From Yuukianura sp. NJ FZ-2021 (taxonomy: Eukaryota), in NCBI GenBank assembly GCA_046563655.1, contig CM102290.1:8370001-8434000 (forward strand): a stretch of 64,000 nt of DNA. The letters are read 5' to 3'. The notes under the pieces were generated by a model that was not told the DNA's origin, did not search any database, and saw only the letters and a list, made by a program, of their open reading frames with translations. Shown in pieces: positions 33,787 through 51,387 of the stretch (positions are counted from its first letter, which is position 1; every line of letters begins with the position of its first letter). The translations under genes were made by a program, and so were the position numbers.

Positions 33787-36700
33787 TCAGAGTCTCTTCT
33801 TAATCAGCTTCTCCAATTTTTTAATCCGAGAGCTCTCCGCACTTGTCCCTTGAGATAACCCATCGGTTCCAGAAGATCCTGGAGACAAGGCTCCTCTCAG
33901 CCCTCCGCCACCAGCCTTCGTCTTGAATTCTTCCAGAACTGGGCCCTGCTCAGGCCGCTTGAGTCCTTTCATCTCTAGGATTTTCGTAAATTCAGTCACG
34001 TCTGCATCTGGTACTAATTTACAGCAGTGGTCCACAAATGCCCCAACATCCTCAACAGGCGTCATTACGACTTTCAAAATCATCTCAATTCGCCCCATCT
34101 CAGTCACGATTAGTTTGCTGTATCTGAAAACACATAAATTTACATCATTCAATTTCCTCCCCTTTTTGTTGTCGAAATGTTTTTGTTTGCTTCACTTGTC
34201 TGGCGGTTTCCTTTTGACTGTCAAACTAATTGAAGGAAGGTCAAGAAGAGCCGTCTTGAGACTCTGCGTATCCAAAAGCAGTTGCTCAGCTCCAGTTTTG
34301 CTAACGTTTTTGCACTTGTGCAACATCGACAGGAATTTGGTCATAAAGAGTCTGCAAAATTCCAAACATGAAATTACATTCCAACCACGGTCGGATCATT
34401 CTCAAGAATTGGTCAACTCCCACACAAACTCATTAAATTCAGAACATCTCAATTAATCCTGTAGAATTCCTATGCTAAAGCAGACCTCTCCACCCAATTA
34501 GTCTCAAGACATAAAAGAATTCAAGTCATCTTGATCTATTGAACAAAGGCGAAGTACTATTCATAGCAACCTAACCTGAAAAAAAAACATCGGAGTTTTT
34601 CTACTGAATAAGCGATGAGCGAAAAAACGAACGTTTTTGCAGAAATCTCGCATCACCCCAACGCCATTCGAAATTCTTTGTAGAACAAAAGAAAGCAAAT
34701 AACTAAAAAAAAAGTTCGAAGTTTGAAATGAATTATTAAAAAGTAGAAAGCGTTCATAATTGCTTTTTTAGTTTCTTTTTTAAATGTTATTTCATAAATT
34801 AATTTGAAACATTTTAAACTTTGTTCACACAATCTTGAATGTAGTTGGGGCGATGTGACATCTCTGCAAAAACGTTCGTTTTTTTTTCGCTGATCGCTCA
34901 GTAGAAAAATTCCACTGTTTTTTTTTTAGGTTAGTTTGCTGCGAACAGTATTTGAATAGTTTCACTCACTTGGCAAACTGTTGACAGAAGAGCACAAAAT
35001 ACTTGCGAGAAGTTCCTAGAAAATCACGTAGTGTTGGAACAGTGGCTTTCCATTGAGATGTGATTGTGGAAATGTAACTACTTTGATCGCCAACAGCTTC
35101 AAGTACTTGCCAATTGGTCTAGAAAAATTTCCAAATCTTCAAGAATTTTCAACCTTTTATTTAAATCTATCTTTTCGATTATGAATTCCTGCCGTTACCT
35201 TATGCATGGAAGTCAGGACGGGTTCACAAGCTGAAAACAGGTCCTGGACAAAGAGGCCTACACACATCTCAATCACGTCCATAAACAAGCGTTTCTCCGT
35301 CTCCATATTGAGTTTTGGCGCCAAAGCTTTCAGCTTTTCACGTAATTTTTCCTCAAGTTGTTGAATAGTTTCCACACAATACTCACCAGTAGTGAGAATA
35401 CTACGACAAAAGAAAACAAAGGTCACCTCAAAGGTCAAAGATTCAGTTCAAACTTGGGAAATCTTGAAAAGTGTCCCATACCAAGAAATTTTGTAAAGTT
35501 CTTGTCTGGTAAATCGAACTGCTTCGCCTTCCTTGAGCAACGACTGGAAGTTTTGAATGAGGCCAGAAGTACTGAGCTCACGAAGTTCACGACTCAGTAC
35601 GGAAACGGAAGCCATCGGAGCAGAGGTCATGGTCACCCTAAAAATTAAACAACGTACACGTAAAAGCGTCAATGTTACGCAAAAACGTAAATTGTGAAAC
35701 GCACTTTGGTAAATTTGCCTGCAGGATCCGGGTAGCGTATTCTCTTAGACGTTTACTAAAGACATCGGCCAGGTTGAGCAGTGGTTCACCGCAACTCAGC
35801 TGTGTGCATTGTACCAAACATTTTTTATAAAACACGAATCTAAGAAAATTGAAAAATTATGTTCGTACGCTTTAGAGTTAAAAGAAATTGGATTATTTAA
35901 AAACTTACAAGTCAGCACAATTTGATAGCACGATGCCACTGGGTTCTGGTCCCTGCGGTGTAGGGAATCCACCAGTACGTAATTCTCCTACGAACTTTTC
36001 AATCAATTCGCCTAGGTTTCTAAAAAAGTGTTAAATTTTCTTTTACATTTTCCAAATTCCATTTTCAACAATTTGTGAACTTACTTGTCTTGACTGTCGA
36101 TGTAAATGTATAGAAAGGGGTCAAATGCTTGTGTAATTATTCGATCAAACTTGTTAACGATTATCCGTTTCTCAATAGTTGGAACGGAGACTCGTTTCTT
36201 TTCCAGAAACGGATTCGTGTCATCTCCATTGCCACTTAGAAACGGATTTCTGGAATCCTCTTCTAAAATATTTCCTCCAAATCTTAGAAAAAGTAAATTT
36301 TCAAATCCACATGTTTTCTGAATTGCCGTAAGCAGCAGCTTGACGTCAATTTCCCTCCGTCTCTTGCCCATGACACGTGACAAGTCCTCCCTCGTCTGAT
36401 GGCAAAATTGAAGAGCTATCCTCTGTGATACTTCCCAATGCAGTGGAAATACTGGACCGTAACGTTCTTCAAATTGTATCAAATGCTTCTTCAACCAAGC
36501 GAACCTTTTGTCAATCTAAAAAAGAAGTTCAGCTATAAAATGATTAACTTGACACGTGAAATTAGCATGAAGTTTGACAAACCTTGTCCAACCACGCAGA
36601 ATCTTCATTTTCTTCATAGAGGAGAGTGTACTCTTGAAGTTGCGTTTGAACAAACCACTGTAAAAGTTCGTGTTTGATATGCAAGTCCAGCACATCCAGC

Positions 36701-37483
36701 ACCAAGCAAGCCTCGCTCATTTGCGTAACGTTTATAGAACCGTTTGGCGAAAATGATTCACGAAACTCCAACGAAATCTGATCTCCAAGTTCCTTCTTGA
36801 TTTCTGAAACCTGAATAAACAATTGTATTAGAAATCTAATTAGAAATTGTTGTAAGTTGTAAGACCAGAGATGTATCCAGCATAATGACTCCGCACCTTA
36901 TACGAAAGTTCCGACACTTGTGGAATGCTATTGTAGTGGTCAAAGTGTTCGACGACGTTGGCCACTCCTTGAAGTAAATTTGCTGTATCACCGTACTGAC
37001 GTTTCCTTACAAGCATACTGTAACAAACAAGAATCGAAAGTCAGCATCAGCTTATTTTCAATTGCATTAATCGATGAATTTTTCACCAACTTACTTTAAT
37101 GTTTCCACTCCAGCGACTAGCATATTCAAATGATTCAGGGTTTTGATGGCTTCTGTGAGATTCTTCTTGGCAGTATCCAACTGTCGAATGTCTCTCGTCA
37201 TGTCTCTAACTGCCAATTCACTTTGTTCAGCCCTTCCTCGCATATCCAGAACTTTGGCCACGAGAGCCTCAATTGAGGCTTGAGCTCTCGCCAGTACTGT
37301 AACACCATCTTGATCCGGTCGTCCTGTTTGATCACGCACAAATTCCCGAATTCCTCGGTCAATCGTAAAAATTTCATTTTCTAGCGAGCTAATTACATCA
37401 CTCAAACCGGCTAGTGACTGTTCCGTTGGAAAGGCGTTGTTGATGTATGCTACGACGTCAAAGTCTTCACCCTCGGCGGCCAT
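33787..37483 (-). CDS. VPS53: Vacuolar protein sorting 53 (GARP/EARP subunit)
   Basis: [18 protein letters not shown]...[84 protein letters not shown]-terminus [15 protein letters not shown]. Confidence 0.95.
34555..34950. mobile_element. TA-flanked MITE with ~110-bp imperfect TIRs in VPS53 intron
   Basis: TACTATTCATAGCAACCTAACCT...GCGAAAAAACGAACGTTTTTGCAGA...CCCCAAC mirrored by GTTGGGG...TCTGCAAAAACGTTCGTTTTTTTTCGC...AGGTTAGTTTGCTGCGAACAGTA. Confidence 0.85.
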
Positions 37484-38660
37484 TGTTACTACAATCTACT
37501 TTAACATTGAATTAAACTAATTTCTACCTTAAACTAATTAACTTGAGATAAATCTACCAATTTTTTTAAGGTAATTCAATATTTCCAAATGAAAATGACA
37601 TTTTCAAAAAACAGCAGATGAAGTAAATAAAAAATGTAAACAGGTGGAGGAGCCCCAGGAGGTAGCAAAACTCGGAACGGAAAATGCACTTGACTAAATG
37701 AGATTTGCAATACACTTTTATTTCATCCTTCTCGTACTTGCCTCTGATAATTAGATTATTACGATGTTATACTTTTGATCTATCTCAATAATTGTTAAAT
37801 CCTTAATTTTTAATTACTAAAACTTTAATTTTAACACTACTCATGCATTAAATTATTGTTACTTTGTATTGTTTTGCAATTTTTGTATTTCGTAATTTGG
37901 CACAATGTTATTCCACAAAATTTAATTTTGGTTTTGGCGGGCAATAAATCCAACGCTGTTGAGACACTACCAAAAATTATTAAATTCCTTAAAATGTATG
38001 ACATTAAAAATTTTAAAAACTACGTTAGGTAAACGTTACATTAACAAACTTAAAGGTAACATTTACCTAACGTTAAGTTAAAGTGGCAAGTATAGTAATA
38101 GCGGAACACAACTCTGTTTGAACAGTGTTCATGCGTTTTAAAATTTCCTCCATTTTCCCTAAACTTCGCTATTTTCCTAGCTGCTCTCTTCCTAATCTGC
38201 TTGCATCTGGGAAACAACACAAGATCCAAGCCGGTATTAAGATACATTCTGGACTAGCCTCCATATGTAAGTTCCTCCTCCTGTTCAATTGTTTGGCATT
38301 TGGCACGCTATTTTAGTCGTATCCGACCCGATGGTATCCCTCTGCTGAAGATACACAACCACTCTCGCTCTACGGTTTCTAACTAAAACTCTGCAGCACG
38401 GTAAGGGGTATAACATTTTCACAACCTCTTCTGCATTCTGGCTCTCGGGATCTCCTTTCTAACGGTACGACGGTAAGGATATAACACTTTTCCCCCAGTA
38501 AAACGGCGTGTGTGGGCTCTTGTGCTATAACTTTTTGGTTCGGGTGTACTAGGTAAAGCTTTCTGTAAGCATGAATTCAGTTGAATCAGGAGTTGAGTTT
38601 GGGAGAGACCGCATCGTTGTTCGTGGTCGTGGACGTGGTTGTGGAATCAAAAAGCGAGAC

Positions 38661-40062
38661 ATGATGGCAGGAAGGTAAGGAATTGTCACTCTACTAAATT
38701 GCAGCGAAAATAATTGGTGTGACAAAACTCCCTTACTGTTTAACAGTGTCTTCCTGACGTCCTTTAGGTACAACGACGGAGGTCCAAACAAAGGTTTTGG
38801 TGACCATGGGTCGAAGCAGCAAGCTCCCTTCACTGCATACGTTGGAAACTTACCGAAACACATCAGCCAGGGGGATATTGACCGGCTTTTTGCAACGCTA
38901 ACGAAGGCAAGTTTACTAAATTTTTGCAAAGGCTGGTTGCCAGTAACCACTTGGTAGGGCTTGAGTAGGCAAATCTTCAGTGGAGCGAACTCACCGTAAT
39001 TGCCTGGTGCGTTTCAACCAAGCAAGCTCGAACCGGCTTTGGTTTATCCTGGAAGAGTAGTGCGCAGTTATAACAGTTACAATTAGTGTACAGTGTACAG
39101 TAGTAAGGGATAAGTTATATACGAAGATGAGGCAGGATACTTCTGTAACGTGCAGAACTGGCAGACAACAACTTGATAATACTCGTGAAGCTGGAGAAAT
39201 TACTAAATTCATTTGTTTTTGTTTCCCTTATAGCCGAAATCCATCCGTCTGGTTTACGATAGGGAGACCGAAAGATTCAAGGGATTTTGTTATGTCGAAT
39301 TCGAAGATGCTGATACGCTGCATCGGGCGCTCAGTCTCAATGGTTCTATAATCGATGGAAATCAAATCAAGGTAAGGTCAAATCACTTCAAAAGTTATTT
39401 TGAGTGTTAACGCATTTGTGTTTAAAGATATTTTTGTTTCGTTTTTCAGATTGACATAGCCGATGGACGAAGGGGAGGCGACCGTGGTGGAGGCAGAGGA
39501 GGTCGCGGTGGGGGGATGTACCGCGGTGGCGGTGGTGGGTTTCCTCCAATGGGGGGTTACGGAGGTGGTGGCGGCTACGGTGATCAGCATCCTCCTTTTC
39601 CCGACGAATCCTACATGAAACCAAGAAGAGGCGGCTATGGAGGTGGAGGTCGCGGTGGTGGCCGCGGAGGTTACTCTAATTTCAGTTCAGATCGCCCACC
39701 CCGTGGGGGCGGAGAGTCAAGGTCCTTTGACGGACGGCACCGAAGAGATTCGGACAGGTCTATAGGCGAGCAACAGTTTAGAGAGCCTACCGCAGGTAAC
39801 GATTCAAATCACATCAAGACCCAAATGCTGGAACTGTTGAAATTGTCTAAAATGTGCTTCTTGTTTGGAATTTGTAGAAGAACTGGCTGGTAGAAAGCGG
39901 TTGAACCTACTGCCGAGAACAGTTTCCGAACCAGTGAATGCTCTTGCAAGTAGTAGCCAGGCATCCCATATCTTTGGTGGTGCGAGACCTCGGGAGGAGG
40001 TATTACGTACAAAAGAAGATGACAAGTCTACTACAAGTGAAGAGAACATGGGTGGAGCCTAA
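38661..40062 (+). CDS. eIF4H: Translation initiation factor eIF4H (RRM + RGG region)
   Basis: Exons 38661-38674, 38768-38906, 39234-39371, 39450-39795 and 39878-40062. Motifs: PFTAYVGNLP (RNP2), RLVYDRETERFKGFCYVEF (RNP1), RGG-rich segment, RKRLNLLPRTV, SHIFGGARPREE. Confidence 0.93.
38926..39200 (+). ncRNA. Candidate structured intronic RNA (snoRNA-like or regulatory) in eIF4H intron 2
   Basis: Nested complementary segments AAGGCTGGTT/AACCGGCTTT, CTTGGT/ACCAAG, AGGCAA/TTGCCT and GAG-CGAA-CTC; further stems TTATCC/GGATAA and TTCTGTA/TGCAGAA; AGAGTA fits an H box (ANANNA). Folded by eye only. Confidence 0.4.
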
Positions 40063-41097
40063 GGGTCGGTGGAGGTGGGTCTAGTGGCTACAGGGGATGC
40101 TGGATCTTGACTAAGTAGCAAGTATTCTGTTGATCCAGCAGCCACCACTAACCAACTCATCCCCTTCCTGCTCGCTCCACCTTCCCCGTCTCTTTTTGTG
40201 TTGTTTGGACTGGAATTCATTGTGTGTTGAATGACCTTCGAAAGTGTGTACGTTTAATTTAAGTGATTTCTTCAACTATTTCACAAAAACTTTTATTCAT
40301 GACTTATACCTTGAGGAGTATATAACGTTATATACGGAATACCTTACACCGAAAAGGCTCTACAGTTAATTAATTACACATGGTAGTCTTAGTTAGGCCA
40401 CATTGACATTGCAATTTATTAAAAAAAATATATTGAGACATGATGAATTCGATGCCCAAACCCCTTCCTTAGTAGTTAGTCCTTATTCAGTTGTAACTAA
40501 TTACTAAATTAACCTTCTGGCGAGTACAGTTTAAGTACTCAGATTTACGTAAGTATTTGATTTATAGTAAAAGACTTCAAGCCTTTTATTACCGTGAACA
40601 ATGCCTTATAAAAGTTTAACATTGGATTTATTAACCTTCACTTATTTAACTTTCACTAATTGGCCAATTGTTAGTTTTCGGCGTGAATCTGCGTAGCGGA
40701 TGTACGAATTTCATGTTGAACGCAGTTTTCGCTGAGGCGCGAAAAACAAACCCGCCATGTGTGTAAAAAGTAAGATGAAAAAATTCTGCCCGGTGTTTGT
40801 CATTTGTTTTGGATTTTTACGGAGTGCGTGGTCGTGCTGTTAGCTGTAAGAATTCCTTTCCTAGGTTGGTCAATTAGTGAAGTGAAGTAATTGTTTGTTT
40901 GTAATTGCTAATTGTGATGATGTTTACCGATTAATCGGTACGTTTCGATAATTAGTTGGTTTGATTCTTTGATTTCAACAGGACACAGGAACACGAAGGC
41001 GCCTTTTGAGTTACATCGTGTCTGGTGATCGGTCAGAGTACGTATCTAAGGAACGGGTTTGCCCACCAGACACTCTTTTCGCCAGTTACGGTTAATC

Positions 41098-44798: not shown

Positions 44799-47700
44799 CT
44801 ACTTTACGTCCACTGCATTTACTTTAATGTTAACTGAAAGCGTTGTAGTGCTCGCAGAGGAAGAGGCTACAACAGCAGCAGCCGCCGTTCGTCGTGTCAC
44901 GCGTGTCGTAACTTTTTCCGTCTCCATCGGCATTGGTTCTTCTGCGTCAGCGTCACTTCCTCCCCCTTCGTCGCTTCCAGCCGTCGTGTCAATTTTGGAG
45001 GCTGCCACTGACGTAGTTGGAACAGACGATGTAGTGCTGCTGGAAGTGGAAGGTTTAGCATTTGTGGCAGCAGCAGCAGCAGCCACTGCGGCGGCAGTTC
45101 GTCTCGTCAGTCTCAAGGCCTTTGGTGGTGGTTCGTCATCTTCCTCAATCTCCGGCTCCTCCAATCGCGTCTGTTCTGCGTCCATCGGACGGGCGTCAAT
45201 GGATACATTTCCATCTTCGTCCAGAACCGTTGCGTCTCTCTTTCCTTTGCGATTTAATTTCTTCGTACTCTCGGATACGACAGAGATCGTCATTCCAGCT
45301 TTCTTTGGAGCAGCGTACTGCATGTCTGGAGGGAGGTAGGACCGTGGATTTGAGAAGTTGGGGTCCGCTGGTCGCTTGAAGTACATTGGTGGAATTCTGG
45401 GTTCGGCGGGATGGTCCTTCATTTCAAAACTTGTTGATCGCTGGAGAATGAGACCAAGAGCGATGTCACAGAGAGCGTACATTTTGCAGTTGACGGAATC
45501 GTTTTCCGGTTCCAGTGCATCCACATGATTCTTCATTCCTTCAATCAAGCATTTGTAAAAACCAAAGGAATAATTTTCATTTTTGACAATGAGCGGCTCC
45601 ATGATGAACCACAGACAGTCCTTCATCTTGGCTAATTCTTCGTGGTTGAAGTAGGACGTATAGCTAAAAGACACAAGGTTAGCGTTAGTAACATTTCAAG
45701 TTTTCAAAATTTTGATTTCATTGTTAAATTGTCTTCTGAAAATCAAAATCTTACGCAGGATTATGTGTCAGAACTGGAACAGAGAAGACGAGCATGTAGT
45801 CCGGCATGATATGCGGCAGCTGTTCGGTAGCTCTGTCGGATGCTGTCAGCATCAGCCCTTTGATGTACTCTCGTCGTTTGGACACATCCGTCAACATGTA
45901 CGACTTGATGGTCATCTTCTGCTTGCGATCTGGCTCGAGTCCAGCCAAAGCATAAAATCCCATAAAGTCCAATGGAAGACACTTATGTGGAATTCCTCTC
46001 GAAAGGCCACGGTGTACCTTGGAAGCAAATTTCCCGCGAACTTCCAAAACGTCATCACTCATCAGTTTAGACAAGCTGCAAAATTGTGACGACGTGAACT
46101 GGTCCCCTACGCCCTTCTGCTCACAAATCTTGAGCATAGCACATCCAGCAGCCAGACGCAACCAACTCATCTCAGCAGCACTAAAGTCCACTTTGGCATT
46201 GATAAATCCTCCTCCAGTTTCAACAAATGCTGTCAGCATTTTGAATGTTTTGGCTGCAGATTTATGATCCGTTCGAAGTCCAAGGAGCCATCGGACAGTT
46301 GCCTTCATTCCAGCTATCATTGCTCTTGTGATTTCTGGAAGTTCTTCCATATCACACCAAGGATCAGGATTTTTGTACTGATCTTCCTCTTCTCTCCTTG
46401 GATTGACGAGCAGTTCTTTGACAATCTTTTGAGACACGATTCCTTTCATTTCATTTTTGAATTCTTCTGGCATGAGGAGTGCAATGTGTCCCAGGCCAAC
46501 AATTGCCGTTCGATACCCAGCATTCTTTGGATCCAGATTCGTTTTGAGTGACTCCACTACTTGCGTAAACGTTTGAAGACGAGCACTCGGGTTGAGATTA
46601 GTAAAAATACAGCGGATAGCTTCTTTTGCACGTTTCGGGGTTCCGGACACTAACGAATTCTGACAGTGCGGTACCAGTGTGCCCATTAGCGCCTGTTGAT
46701 ACTGACCTGAAAATTAGATTAGTCTTGAGTAAAATATACAACAATCAACGTTTAAGATTAATTTAAACAAAGGTCAAAGATGAGATGAGTTTTGTACCAA
46801 TTGGTTTAGCTTTTCCAATGCAAGTCAGTGCAGATAGGATGGCTGGCTGAAGGGAAGGAGACACCAGAGTGAGGAGACGGATGAGTAACGTCAATGTCTG
46901 CTCTTCTGCGAAGTGATTTGGAAATACAAATGCCAACACCTACAAATTTCACAAATCATAAATAAAAATATGTTATATACACAAAATAATATATGTAATA
47001 AAATAAAAAGTAAAAAAAATAAATAAAACAAAATATTGAGAATATGCTACACCTACATTGATAAGTCGTAGGCCTCTTTCAATAGCAACGTCCTTGGGCA
47101 TGCCAAGACTCTTCAGAACGTCAGGATTCTCAAGGCGCACAGAATGCAGGATACTTAGCAGTTTCTACAAGGAAAAAAAAAGAAACAAATGACATTTAAA
47201 TATTAATATATTATATGAATATAATGTACAAAAGTTCGCTTACAATCAAGGCATCTTTGTCTATGAGAACAGAAGAGATCCGTTGGAGGAGGATTTTGAT
47301 TGTATTGTAATACAAATTGGTCATAACCGGAGCACCCAATTTCTTCAAAACCATGTTCTGAAAATTCCGTACAAACAACAAAATCAAACATTTATCAATA
47401 ACTAAATGAAATTTCATAAATTATGAATTATAATATTATTTTAAAATCTTTTTAAACAATTTTTTTTAAGTCAAAGATTCTCACCACACAATCTGCACAG
47501 CTTTTACAATCCGTTGAAGGGCTCACAATCATCTCCATCTTGGACATTAGGTTTGTGTCCACCTTCAAATCCGACGCAAACTTGCACAAGAATTCCGACG
47601 CTTTGACAGGATCTGGTAGAAACTTTGTGAGAGTTGAGATTCTAGAGCTCAGTTGCCTCTCGGTTTCTGGTAGTGCCGTGTCGAAGTTCTTTATACAGGC

Positions 47701-50024
47701 CAAAAAGTCAGCAACATGTCTTCGAACACTAACGAATAAAAAAAAAAATTCGAAGTTTTTGAAAATTCTGTCAAACTTTTGAAATTCTAACTATACTGTT
47801 CAAAAGTTCAACACGTACAGCAGAAGTGTCTTCTGGATTTCGACAAATGCTTTGGTGGCGTTCTCATCAATGGAGCCAAACAGGTAGAGGAGTTTGAGCA
47901 TTCGCTCTTCCGAAGGCAACTGGAACGGAACGAGACAACCGTTCAGAAGACGCTCAACAACGATTCTAAAACATAAATGACTGTTATAACTTATTGAAAT
48001 CACAACTAATTAAAAAACTAATTAACTAAAACGTACCTATCGTCCATTGAACTCATGTAGTAAGCGTGAAGGATTTTATCTTTGATCCATGTCACTGCGT
48101 CTCTGGTTGCCGTTGGAATATAATCTGACGTCAGAGTGAGATGCGTCTTGTAAATCAGGGCCAATCCTTGCAGAGCTTCTCGTCTAATTTTGAGCTGAAA
48201 GGCATGAAATATACTAATTTAAAATATGCAACGTCTAACTAAAGTTAAAAGTTACCTTCTTGTCCATGATTCGCTCTTTGACGTAATTCAACAAGTCTTC
48301 ACTTTCAGATACAACTGAAAAGTCTAACTTGGCCGTTGCTACAATGGCTTTCACAACTTCAAACCGAACATTCTCCTCTCCATCGTGTTGCCGTGTCTAG
48401 TCAAGGTTTAATTACAATTACATTTAAAGTAATTCCTACTCATAATTGTAATTACACCGTAATTACAGCCTAATTACATCGGAGTAAAGGTCAATGCGGC
48501 AAGGTAATTAATTACCCGAAGAGTCTCCACAATGTCGCTTCGCAGCTCAGGATGATTGAGAAGGAAATGCATAGAATACTGGACACATTTAATTCGAATG
48601 GGGATGCTGATGTCATTGAATCTGGAAGAAAAAGGAAGTTGTTATAAAATATAACATAAAAAGTTTTAGTTGTTTAATTTAATTAGTCTTGTTTTCAATT
48701 ATTTCAATCCGTTAGTTACCTTCCCAAGAAAGCTTGCCAAAGTTGCGGATGATTACTGGCTAACTTAGACTCCTTTTCAGAGAACATACGAGCGAGGAGA
48801 GACACGCATCCAAGACGTTCAGATTCGTCAACACTTTTTAGTTTGTACTCAAGTTGTGGAATGACTGAGAGGAGAATTGACGGACAAATGTTGTTCAACT
48901 CATAGATCAAATCATACACCTGAAAGTTATAAATTATATTATATTAATTAATTAACTTTGATTAAAATTAACTTTAACATTATTAACTTAACCTAAAGTA
49001 CTTACCTTCATTTTAATTCGATACTCATTCTCGTCCTTTCCACAGACCAAAACCTGGTTGAAAAACTAAACCAAAACAAAACGTAAAAAAAAATTCCAAA
49101 CAATTTTTTTTGGAGATTTTCTTTTTTCAAAATTGAAAACTCACGTTTTGAATGTACGGTTCCAGCGTTTCGGAACATTTGACGATGAGTTCTTTGGCAA
49201 GGTGATACGCATTCTTCTTAGTCGTCTTTACCGGTTCAACGATGTTGGTCAAGAGGATGTCCAAGAGCTCACTTGAAACTGTGTCACACTCGGTAATGAG
49301 GGGACACAGAACGTCTAGCATGAATGACTTTACTTTCCCCGAATGTTCATCGCTAAAAATTTAACAAAAAGGAAGTTAGGAATCAACGTTTCGAAAATCA
49401 AAAACAAAATTTTTCAAAGATTATTGTTACTTGACAATTTGGAAGACTAGGCCAAATAGTACACAGAATATTTCCTGTGCATCGTCCAATTCAAAACACA
49501 TGTTGAAGGATTTGACATAAGCCAAATTCTCTAGCAGGTAGAAGTAGCGCTTGAAGGCAGGGTCTTTGGGATCCTTGAGTCCCTCGAGTTGCCCAATTAA
49601 AAATTTAAAAATTGTCTAAAATTGAAAACGTTTTTAGATTAGTTCAATCGAGGAGCGAGAACAGAAAGTAAACGTTGTGATTGAAACTTACTTTTACTTG
49701 CTCCTGATCTTTGTATGGGGCTTCTGGGGCATAGATTCGTAAGATGTCAGCGACACAACAGGCAATGAGAAGTCGGACATCTTTGGAAGGATGATTTAGA
49801 AATCCGTCTTCAGCCAAATGTAAGCAGAGTGGAACGTACTCTTCATAAGCATTCTCCTCTTGACCCATACTCTGAAATGTGGAGGCCAGAACTTTGAGAC
49901 GACGAATTAGTTCATCCACATGCATTTCATCGCTGACTTCTTTGCAACTCTGAGGATACAAAATGGCTTCTGACAGAGACGACGTGGCTTGACGTCCACC
50001 GGGCTTCTTTCCTTGTCTAGACAT
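44799..50024 (-). CDS. PDS5: Sister chromatid cohesion protein PDS5
   Basis: ILYPQSCKEVS...HPSKDVRLLIACCVADILRIYAPEAPY; FKRYFYLLENLAYVKSFN; LLSVIPQLEYKLKS; WIKDKILHAYY; WLRLAAGCAMLKIC; LPHIMPDYMLVFSVPVLTH; CLWFIMEPLI; low-complexity C-terminal tail; stop at 44799. Confidence 0.96.
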
Positions 50025-51387
50025 GTTTCCAGAACGTTTTTGTCCAGTCTGCTGCCAACCTCTTGTCAGTAAACTGTTTAGCTGCGGACAGAGTAAGTAA
50101 ACAATACTTAAAACTCGGTAGTTCCTCTTCCTCCTCTCCCTCCCAATGAAACAGTCAAGAATCAATCACAAGCTTCCCAATTAATCAAATGATTTACCCA
50201 CTACAACACAACCGTATTCAGCTCAGTGCTCGGCTGTAGCTTAATACAGCCTACACTAACGGTATTTTGTTACGTACCTGTCAGTTACCAGCTGATTAAG
50301 CCTTGCAAATTCTTGCTAAAATCGCAATATTGCCGTCCAATCAAAGTTGGCTGCTTGTTAAAACCTGTGTTATTTCCGAACCAATTACTTTATACTAATC
50401 AGATTTAATTGATTAGCGATTGAAGACTTCGCAAATCAAAAACAAATTGAATGTTTTTATGATGCCAAAGACAGTGGATCCTCTCAGGAAGAAAAAGAGA
50501 CAATCTCTGGTTATATTCTATGTGGCGGCGTCTGTCCGTTATTAAGCGAGGCATCGACCGACGCCCAGTCTCGACCTAGATGGAGCATGGGAAATGGCTC
50601 GCATTTTGCAAGCACAATACCGTAAAGATTGAAATAGATAGCTCTTGTTTGCAAGCCCAAAAAAGACTCAACACAGCAAAGCGATGGAAAACCATTACTA
50701 GTAGTTGGTGGTAGCTCTTCCAGTTTTGTATTAATTCATTTTCTTTCTAGTTAACCACAATTTAGTTAACTTACTATCATACATTTAACACCTCTCAACA
50801 TGTTTTGTCTCTAAACTGCACCAAAAAAACGGCAGTTTCGTAGCGTTTAATTCTTGTAGTTTTAGCAGTTTTACGGTACTATTTGAGTGGGCGGAAGGAA
50901 GAGCGCGAATTTCATTTTTACAAAAACCATAAAAAAAAACAAATAAATCAAAACATCAATCAATCAAAATAGTAACAACGAAAAACATAAGGACAAATTG
51001 AATTGATTGCTAATTAATTAATTAGTCAGTTACAATTATAATTCGGTACACAGGAGTTTGCTAGTAAACGATGAAGCAAAATGTACCATTTCGTATACTC
51101 CAGTCCAGGCGGGGTTATTCATATCCACCCAGTTTGCATAATTAACCCTCCCAGAAAAATTGTAAGTTTACTATTTCGTTTGCTTTAATTCATATCATTA
51201 ATTGATTCATTATTTGTTGTAATTAATGGAAGGTAGGGATAGGATTATTGTAATTATAATTTATAATTTGCGTTATCGGTATTCTGCTTAATTTAATAAT
51301 TTGTTCGGTTTATATTTCCCCTGCAGTTGCATAAGTTTGACTTGGACAGAATCCGAAGATTTTTAATATTTGCCTTTGTATTTTTAG

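Follow-up and report, generated by a model that had tools for sequence, protein, structure and literature searches.

Introduction

GC-AG is the main class of non-canonical splice sites, and RNase P RNA is intronic in insects and crustaceans. According to the available sections of PMC2490688, GC donors account for less than 1% of donors, the rest of such a site lies closer to the consensus, and GT and GC donors have often been switched between species during evolution. In human and mouse protein-coding genes, GC-AG makes up about 0.8% of junctions, and introns of this class are on the whole shorter than GT-AG introns (PMC7242645, available in part). For the human EIF4H gene, the accessible part of PMC4006729 describes a pre-miRNA-like hairpin in exon 5 that is bound by Drosha, with miR-590 lying downstream.

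Here we analyzed the second intron of an eIF4H-type gene from Yuukianura sp. NJ FZ-2021. All positions refer to the window, which is the whole stretch of DNA analyzed (64 kb; contig CM102290.1). A previous reading, made from the letters of this DNA without database searches (the sequence-only reading), had described the intron as a GC-AG intron filled with predicted RNA structure. It had proposed that the intron contains either an ncRNA missing from annotation or a splicing/NMD element for autoregulation, coupled to a weak donor.

Compared with the systems above, the closest likeness is to U2-type GC-AG introns. Every sequence-level feature of that class is found in intron 2 (GC at +1/+2 in an otherwise consensus donor, a TACTAAA resembling a branch point, a pyrimidine tract and a terminal AG), and no substantive difference from the class was seen, with splicing here predicted from the sequence. 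The homologous intron of a relative (L003, see below) is GT-AG, which fits the switching between GT and GC described in the available text of PMC2490688. Unlike the human and mouse trend reported in the available part of PMC7242645, intron 2 is the longest intron of its gene. The human EIF4H system belongs to the same gene family, and in it RNA structure affects splicing and a small RNA is hosted; however, the human elements are located around exon 5, after the RRM, whereas intron 2 splits the RRM. Furthermore, the human hairpins are about 60 nt long and are cleaved by the Microprocessor, whereas no hairpin above shuffled sequences and no miRNA family match was found in intron 2 (human data from the accessible part of PMC4006729). 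With intron-hosted snoRNAs and intronic RNase P RNA, intron 2 shares the setting, an intron of a translation-factor gene, and nothing else: it has neither C/D boxes nor a hairpin-H-hairpin-ACA arrangement, it matches no snoRNA, scaRNA, RNase P or MRP family of Rfam at E <= 10, and neither excess structure nor conservation was seen in it.

Results

Gene Model and Genomic Neighbourhood

The eIF4H-type gene is located on the + strand at 38661-40064. In the spliced gene model, five coding exons (Table 1), separated by introns of 93, 327, 78 and 82 nt, give a product of 273 residues without internal stop. Exon 3 matched Pfam RRM_1 (E 1.6e-11) and showed 78-82% identity to three eIF4H proteins in the protein search, the nearest named relative being Folsomia candida eIF4H isoform X2 (78% identity over exon 3). 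Exon 2, aligned to the proteins of three relatives (P0001-P0003), showed 42-51% identity, with VGNLP and QGDID..LF invariant. The last exon had a weak resemblance to the eIF-4B family, below the Pfam cut-off. Judged by these similarities, the gene is an eIF4H orthologue with five coding exons.

Thirty codons upstream of the modelled start there is another ATG, at 38571, in the same frame, which is open (MNSVESGVEFGRDRIVVRGRGRGCGIKKRD...). A possible acceptor (tttctgtaag/c) directly precedes this ATG, and two GTAAGG donors are found upstream of it, near 38402 and 38474. The gene may thus contain a 5'-UTR intron and encode a longer N-terminus than modelled; in the alignment, the start at 38661 fits the N-termini of the relatives better than that at 38571. 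The upstream neighbour, Vps53 (36081-37495, - strand), is divergent from eIF4H, and PDS5 (44799-50033, - strand) is located downstream, with its closest named counterpart in Orchesella dallaii (71% identity). These similarities point to a springtail or close kin as the source and to a collembolan-type eIF4H, and the collections searched contained no near relative. An AT-rich, near-perfect inverted repeat was also detected at 38022-38073, about 500 nt upstream of the eIF4H start. It consists of 21-nt arms with 90% complementarity and a 10-nt loop, and, on each strand, Rfam miRNA families matched it weakly and without significance (E 0.59-8.7, with scores far short of the gathering thresholds).

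TABLE 1. Features of the eIF4H gene and of its second intron. Positions are those of the window; a slash marks the exon-intron boundary.
Feature	Position	Strand	Description	Basis
Coding exon 1	38661-38674	+		gene model
Coding exon 2	38768..38906	+	first half of RRM; 3' end ...GDIDRLFATLTK	
Intron 2	38907..39233	+	327 nt, phase 0, GC-AG, GC 0.416	
Coding exon 3	39234..39371	+	second half of RRM; begins PKSIRLVYDRETERFKGFCYVEF	
Coding exon 4	39450-39795	+		gene model
Coding exon 5	39878-40064	+		gene model
GC donor AAG/GCAAGT (intron from 38907)	38904..38912	+	8/9 consensus positions, sole mismatch C at +2; donor of the sequence-only reading	in-frame enumeration
GC donor TTT/GCAACG	38892		protein 5 residues shorter	in-frame enumeration
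GT donor CCA/GTAACC	38943..38948	+	protein 12 residues longer (ASLLNFCKGWLP into RRM)	in-frame enumeration
Cryptic GTAAGG	39103..39108	+	past in-frame stop; exon-2 frame closes at about 38955-38957	
Pyrimidine-rich tract and acceptor CATTTGTTTTTGTTTCCCTTATAG	39210..39233	+		sequence, gene model
GC-rich island	38926..39041	+	116 nt, 52.6% GC; 'nested hairpin' of the sequence-only reading	
Direct repeat TTACTAAATT (10 nt), 5' copy	38913..38922	+	6 nt after donor	
Direct repeat TTACTAAATT (10 nt), 3' copy	39200..39209	+	24 nt before acceptor, at branch-point distance	

Splice Sites of Intron 2

At its 3' end, intron 2 runs into exon 3 as TTCCCTTATAG/CCG (also written TTTCCCTTATAG/CCG), and its terminal AG follows a pyrimidine tract (TTTGTTTTTGTTTCCCTTATAG), as in the GC-AG class. 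Donor sites were scored against the consensus (A/C)AG/GT(A/G)AGT, as printed in the available part of PMC2490688. All GT-AG, GC-AG and AT-AC pairs around intron 2 that keep exon 3 in frame and free of stops were enumerated. Besides two AT-AC pairs that delete the conserved core, three donors were obtained, namely 38907, 38892 and 38943. The GT at 38911, four bases downstream of the GC, breaks the frame and is missing from this list. The sequence-only reading had stated that the RRM stays in frame only with the donor at 38907 and that the nearby GT gives a frameshift; the frameshift at 38911 was recovered, but 38907 is not the only choice that keeps the frame, since 38943 and 38892 keep it as well. 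By hand count, CCA/GTAACC at 38943 agrees with the donor consensus at 5 of 9 positions. The ORF at 38679..38957, which is the frame of exon 2, ends inside intron 2.

The residues at the junction are LFATLTK/PKSIRLV here, compared with LFGEIKTRSIRLV (also given as ...GDIDKLFGEIKTRSIRLVYDRETERF...) and LFSGLKTRSIRLV in the relatives. Spliced at 38907, the junction is one residue longer than in all three relatives' proteins, while use of the GT at 38943 would lengthen it by 13 residues and use of the GC at 38892 would shorten it by four. None of the three proteins compared has an insert at the exon 2/3 junction. The GC at 38907 was chosen because the relatives' proteins fit it best among the frame-keeping donors. 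The best reading of intron 2 is that of a U2-type GC-AG intron whose donor is AAG/GCAAGT, and 38906^39234 is presumably the junction spliced in vivo. The donor at 38907 put forward by the sequence-only reading is therefore supported by frame, by homology and by the homologous intron that a relative carries at this position.

The same reading had called this donor weak. This description applies to the C at +2 but not to the other eight positions, at which the site follows the U1-complementary consensus, and such a compensated site is usual for GC donors (PMC2490688, available in part). Within 39200..39209, the branch-point-like TACTAAA is located 24-33 nt before the acceptor. The comparison of intron sizes agreed with what had been claimed from the sequence, as intron 2 is 3.5-4.2 times as long as introns 1, 3 and 4 (3-4 times had been stated) and is less AT-rich than these (their GC contents are 0.387, 0.282 and 0.354, respectively).

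Homologous Introns in Relatives

Metagenome contigs were scanned with the exon-3 alignment, and 11 loci were obtained, four of which showed 69-72% identity over exon 3. The loci L005-L011 (40-63% identity) were taken as other RRM proteins and left out. In L001 and L002, exon 2 runs straight into exon 3 without a change of frame, so these loci are transcript-like or intronless. The genomic contig L003 contains an intron that matches intron 2 in position and in phase (phase 0; GDLK/TRSIRLV); it is a GT-AG intron of 158 nt with the donor AAG/GTATGA and a GC content of 0.28. The next intron of L003 is also at a matching position (IK/VDIAEG; 163 nt by hand count). L004 shares the acceptor position of intron 2 (ttttag/SRSIRLV), and its intron is at least 506 nt long, as exon 2 was not detected before the contig ends. 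In L004, the RRM exon lies between two long introns (1-506 and 645-2000), and the 1356 nt that follow this exon showed no other exon.

Going by these alignments, the position and phase of intron 2 are old, and relatives share them. L003, the sole relative in which the donor is visible, has GT there, so the GC is not conserved. To judge from these contigs, intron size in eIF4H varies widely between springtail-like lineages. The length of the homologous introns ranges from 158 to >506 nt, and therefore a length of 3.5-4 times that of the neighbouring introns is no sign of function.

When the L003 and L004 introns and the complete contigs were searched by blastn (word size 7) with intron 2 as query, the top alignment covered 33 nt at 76% (E 0.6, the search space being tiny), and there is no alignable similarity between intron 2 and the two homologous introns. 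By its size and composition, the L003 intron (158 nt, 28% GC) cannot accommodate a counterpart of a GC-rich element of 116-250 nt. Because L003 and L004 are distant (69-72% identity over the RRM exon), this non-conservation argues only against an old, conserved element, and a young lineage-specific RNA would escape the comparison.

Predicted RNA Structure

On the + strand, the whole of intron 2 folded at -76.4 kcal/mol, compared with -82.0 +/- 5.1 for dinucleotide shuffles (z +1.10), and 89 of 100 shuffles folded at least as well; the - strand gave z +0.72. The segment 38926-39041 had been described in the sequence-only reading as a nested hairpin of about 115 nt. A branched fold is indeed predicted for it, with a closing stem of 10 bp that includes two G-U pairs, but its energy is within chance (-38.2 kcal/mol against -33.6 +/- 3.5 for shuffles, z -1.33; 21 of 200 shuffles as good). 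When the segment was moved by five bases, z was -0.44. Four further segments of intron 2 gave z between -0.75 and +0.21, and the six sub-segments overall ranged from -1.33 to +0.21.

Sliding windows of 80 nt were also analyzed (45 across 38600-39559, 12 of them wholly inside intron 2). The lowest z of the 12 intron windows was -1.26 on the + strand and -0.79 on the - strand, while flanking exon/intron windows reached -2.04 and -2.29. According to these folding models, intron 2 has no more structure than its composition gives, and the description of an intron filled with predicted RNA structure was not borne out for the whole intron or for its windows, which are no better than the flanks.

Searches for RNA Families and snoRNAs

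Fast-evolving snoRNAs are poorly covered by Rfam. The Rfam search of 38000-40500 (2.5 kb) gave no match in intron 2 at E <= 10 and four weak matches elsewhere. The search of 38890-39250 alone with the laxest filters yielded 0 matches, and 0 matches were also obtained at the gathering score for the whole window. Nuclear RNase P and MRP RNAs (P4 helix, CR-I to CR-V core) were rejected, as neither matched intron 2 at E <= 10. This result, together with the lack of C/D boxes on the + strand, agrees with the sequence-only reading, in which canonical RNase P, MRP and C/D boxes were not visible. ARAGORN identified no tRNA in 38000-40500, and a tRNA or SINE origin was rejected on this basis.

Box C/D snoRNAs carry a C box (RUGAUGA) and a D box (CUGA), joined by a terminal stem. 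The + strand of intron 2 contains no RTGATGA, TGATG or CTGA, and the - strand contains one CTGA and no C box; a box C/D snoRNA was rejected because the required boxes are missing on the + strand. H/ACA snoRNAs consist of a hairpin, an H box (ANANNA), a second hairpin and an ACA three nt from the 3' end. The H-box-like AGAGTA (at 39054), the ACA triplets and the GTAAGG pointed out by the sequence-only reading are all present. On the + strand of intron 2, ANANNA occurs nine times and ACA six times, as expected for such short patterns, and these motifs are too short to mean anything alone. A crude home-made search for hairpin-ANANNA-hairpin-ACA with closed hairpins of 45-95 nt (hairpins >95 nt, such as that of the sequence-only reading, are outside its range) found no such arrangement in intron 2, and 120 of 120 shuffles were at least as good. 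A box H/ACA snoRNA was rejected on this result within that hairpin range and on the lack of an Rfam H/ACA or scaRNA match.

Y RNAs are Pol III transcripts of about 100 nt, with a terminal stem between the 5' GGCUGGUC and the 3' end, a bulged C and an oligo-U terminator. The segment 38926-39041 begins with GGCTGGTT and has a terminal stem. It matched no Y RNA in Rfam at E <= 10 and is followed by TTT runs without any T4 terminator, so this candidate was rejected. Telomerase RNA, a further candidate, was set aside as no CCTAA-type template is visible in the sequence. A structured functional RNA in general was rejected on the z values (-1.33 to +1.10) and on the lack of conservation relative to the two homologous introns. 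Stop-to-stop ORFs in intron 2 do not exceed 45 aa, save those entering from exons or antisense.

GC-Rich Island and Short Repeats

The GC content of the island ranks in the top 4.9% of 116-nt windows across the 64-kb window, and exceeds that of the other three eIF4H introns (28-39%) and of four PDS5 introns (15-26%). The PDS5 introns that could be placed are 86, 98, 91 and 91 nt long (GC 0.15-0.26); this baseline is rough, as 4 of 7 HSP pairs were placed, the last two with imperfect residue counts, and two more were skipped for query gaps. The interior of intron 2 is atypical as intron sequence for the 64-kb window.

Near its two ends, intron 2 contains the copies of the direct repeat TTACTAAATT (Table 1). 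An exact 10-mer repeat of any kind was found in 270 of 5000 shuffles, and one placed as terminally as this in 7 of 5000 (the test was post hoc). The repeat may be the trace of an insertion, or chance. Together, the GC content of the island and the repeat give a hint of an old insertion, which could make up most of the interior of intron 2. Without the repeat-bounded part, intron 2 would be about 40 nt long, which is shorter than all eight measured introns (78-98 nt), and for this reason the insertion reading is not pressed. No second copy of intron 2 was found in the 64-kb window (best match 15 nt). An origin as a MITE was rejected, as the closing stem matches at only 8 of 10 positions as DNA inverted repeats and no terminal inverted repeat lies inside the TTACTAAATT copies. 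In addition, a tandem duplication (GTACAGT GTACAGT) is present within intron 2 at 39085-39101. An inverted repeat of 21 nt with 76% complementarity connects intron 1 (38729-38749) and intron 2 (39090-39110) across exon 2, and it is probably due to chance.

Discussion

Our analyses suggest that intron 2 of this eIF4H gene is, in all likelihood, an ordinary U2-type GC-AG intron, without an embedded RNA gene or a conserved structured element. U1 snRNA would recognise AAG/GCAAGU by pairing at all consensus positions except +2, so that the C would be compensated. Judging from its position and from its likeness to the TACTAAC-type consensus, the TACTAAA some 28 nt ahead of the TATAG acceptor probably serves as the branch point. 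The position of the intron is old, and the GC of its donor could have arisen by a lineage-specific T-to-C change. The extra length of intron 2 may represent neutral, labile sequence, which may include an old insertion, and the interior as a whole is presumably neutral. The sequence-only proposal of an intronic ncRNA or of an autoregulatory splicing/NMD element is unsupported by these results, though not disproved, as intron 2 shows no excess folding, no Rfam match and no conservation. The checks run here out of those suggested along with that proposal went against it: no Rfam family matched intron 2 at E <= 10, its folding energy was no better than that of shuffled controls, and nothing was shared with the two homologous introns.

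The GC at 38907 might instead be a regulated, sub-optimal 5' splice site that competes with the GT at 38943, the GT at 38911 or the GTAAGG at 39103, which we consider unlikely. It is just as doubtful that such competition, by way of a 12-residue insert in the RRM (38943) or of a premature stop and NMD, results in alternative or autoregulatory splicing of eIF4H. Alternative GT donors do exist in the sequence, and the available sections of PMC2490688 and PMC7242645 report an enrichment of GC donors among genes with alternative splicing, and also that the GC donor of let-2 intron 10 in C. elegans is needed for regulated splicing. The family is also known as alternatively spliced, human eIF4H having a structure-dependent alternative exon (PMC4006729, available in part), but that exon is in a different part of the gene. 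Moreover, no relative's protein contains an insert at the junction, the site at 38943 agrees poorly with the consensus, L003 has a plain GT at this donor, so that the GC is not conserved, and no conserved intronic element accompanies it. Another possibility is that the C at 38908 reflects a polymorphism or an error in the assembly and that the real donor is AAG/GTAAGT, making intron 2 a plain GT-AG intron. The site is one base away from a perfect GT consensus, the homologous donor of L003 is GT, and sequencing errors and polymorphism can mislead GC calls that are made from a single genome (PMC2490688, available in part). On the other hand, there is no N in the 64-kb window, the frames of the gene are intact and there is no sign of poor sequence, and a donor that follows the consensus everywhere save +2 is what real GC donors look like according to the same sections, so we regard this explanation as very improbable.

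We also think it highly unlikely that intron 2 hosts a lineage-specific small RNA, located in the island at 38926-39041 or extending to about 39170, and no less so that this would be an RNA processed from the intron, whether atypical H/ACA-like or of another kind, whose youth or divergence hides it from Rfam and from comparison with distant relatives. Translation-factor genes often host snoRNAs, and the island is unusually GC-rich for an otherwise AT-rich class of introns, its ends can pair over 10 bp, and ACA triplets are found at 39165 and 39168, 63-66 nt before the acceptor. In human, the intron downstream of EIF4H exon 5 carries miR-590, as described in the accessible part of PMC4006729. 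Against this, folding did not exceed that of shuffles at any scale or on either strand, Rfam gave 0 matches at E <= 10, and neither C/D boxes nor an H/ACA architecture with hairpins of 45-95 nt was found. The L003 intron is short and AT-rich, with nothing shared between intron 2 and either L003 or L004, and no T run of four or more follows the island to end a Pol III transcript. A bolder idea is that the island bracketed by TTACTAAATT is a young insertion turned into a small RNA, or a splicing-control element tuning eIF4H through alternative 5' sites, and we hold this to be very improbable.

With intron 2 read as an ordinary GC-AG intron, a long and GC-richer intron in which hairpins can be drawn does not argue for an RNA gene unless the fold is conserved or is more stable than those of shuffled controls. 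An intronic RNA in eIF4H, if true, would be a new pairing of host gene and ncRNA in an early-branching hexapod lineage, for which our tests give no support. Beyond annotation, the importance of the finding is small: the GC donor should be used in the eIF4H gene model, as gene finders restricted to GT donors would mis-model the gene, either with a frameshift at 38911 or with 12 additional residues at 38943.
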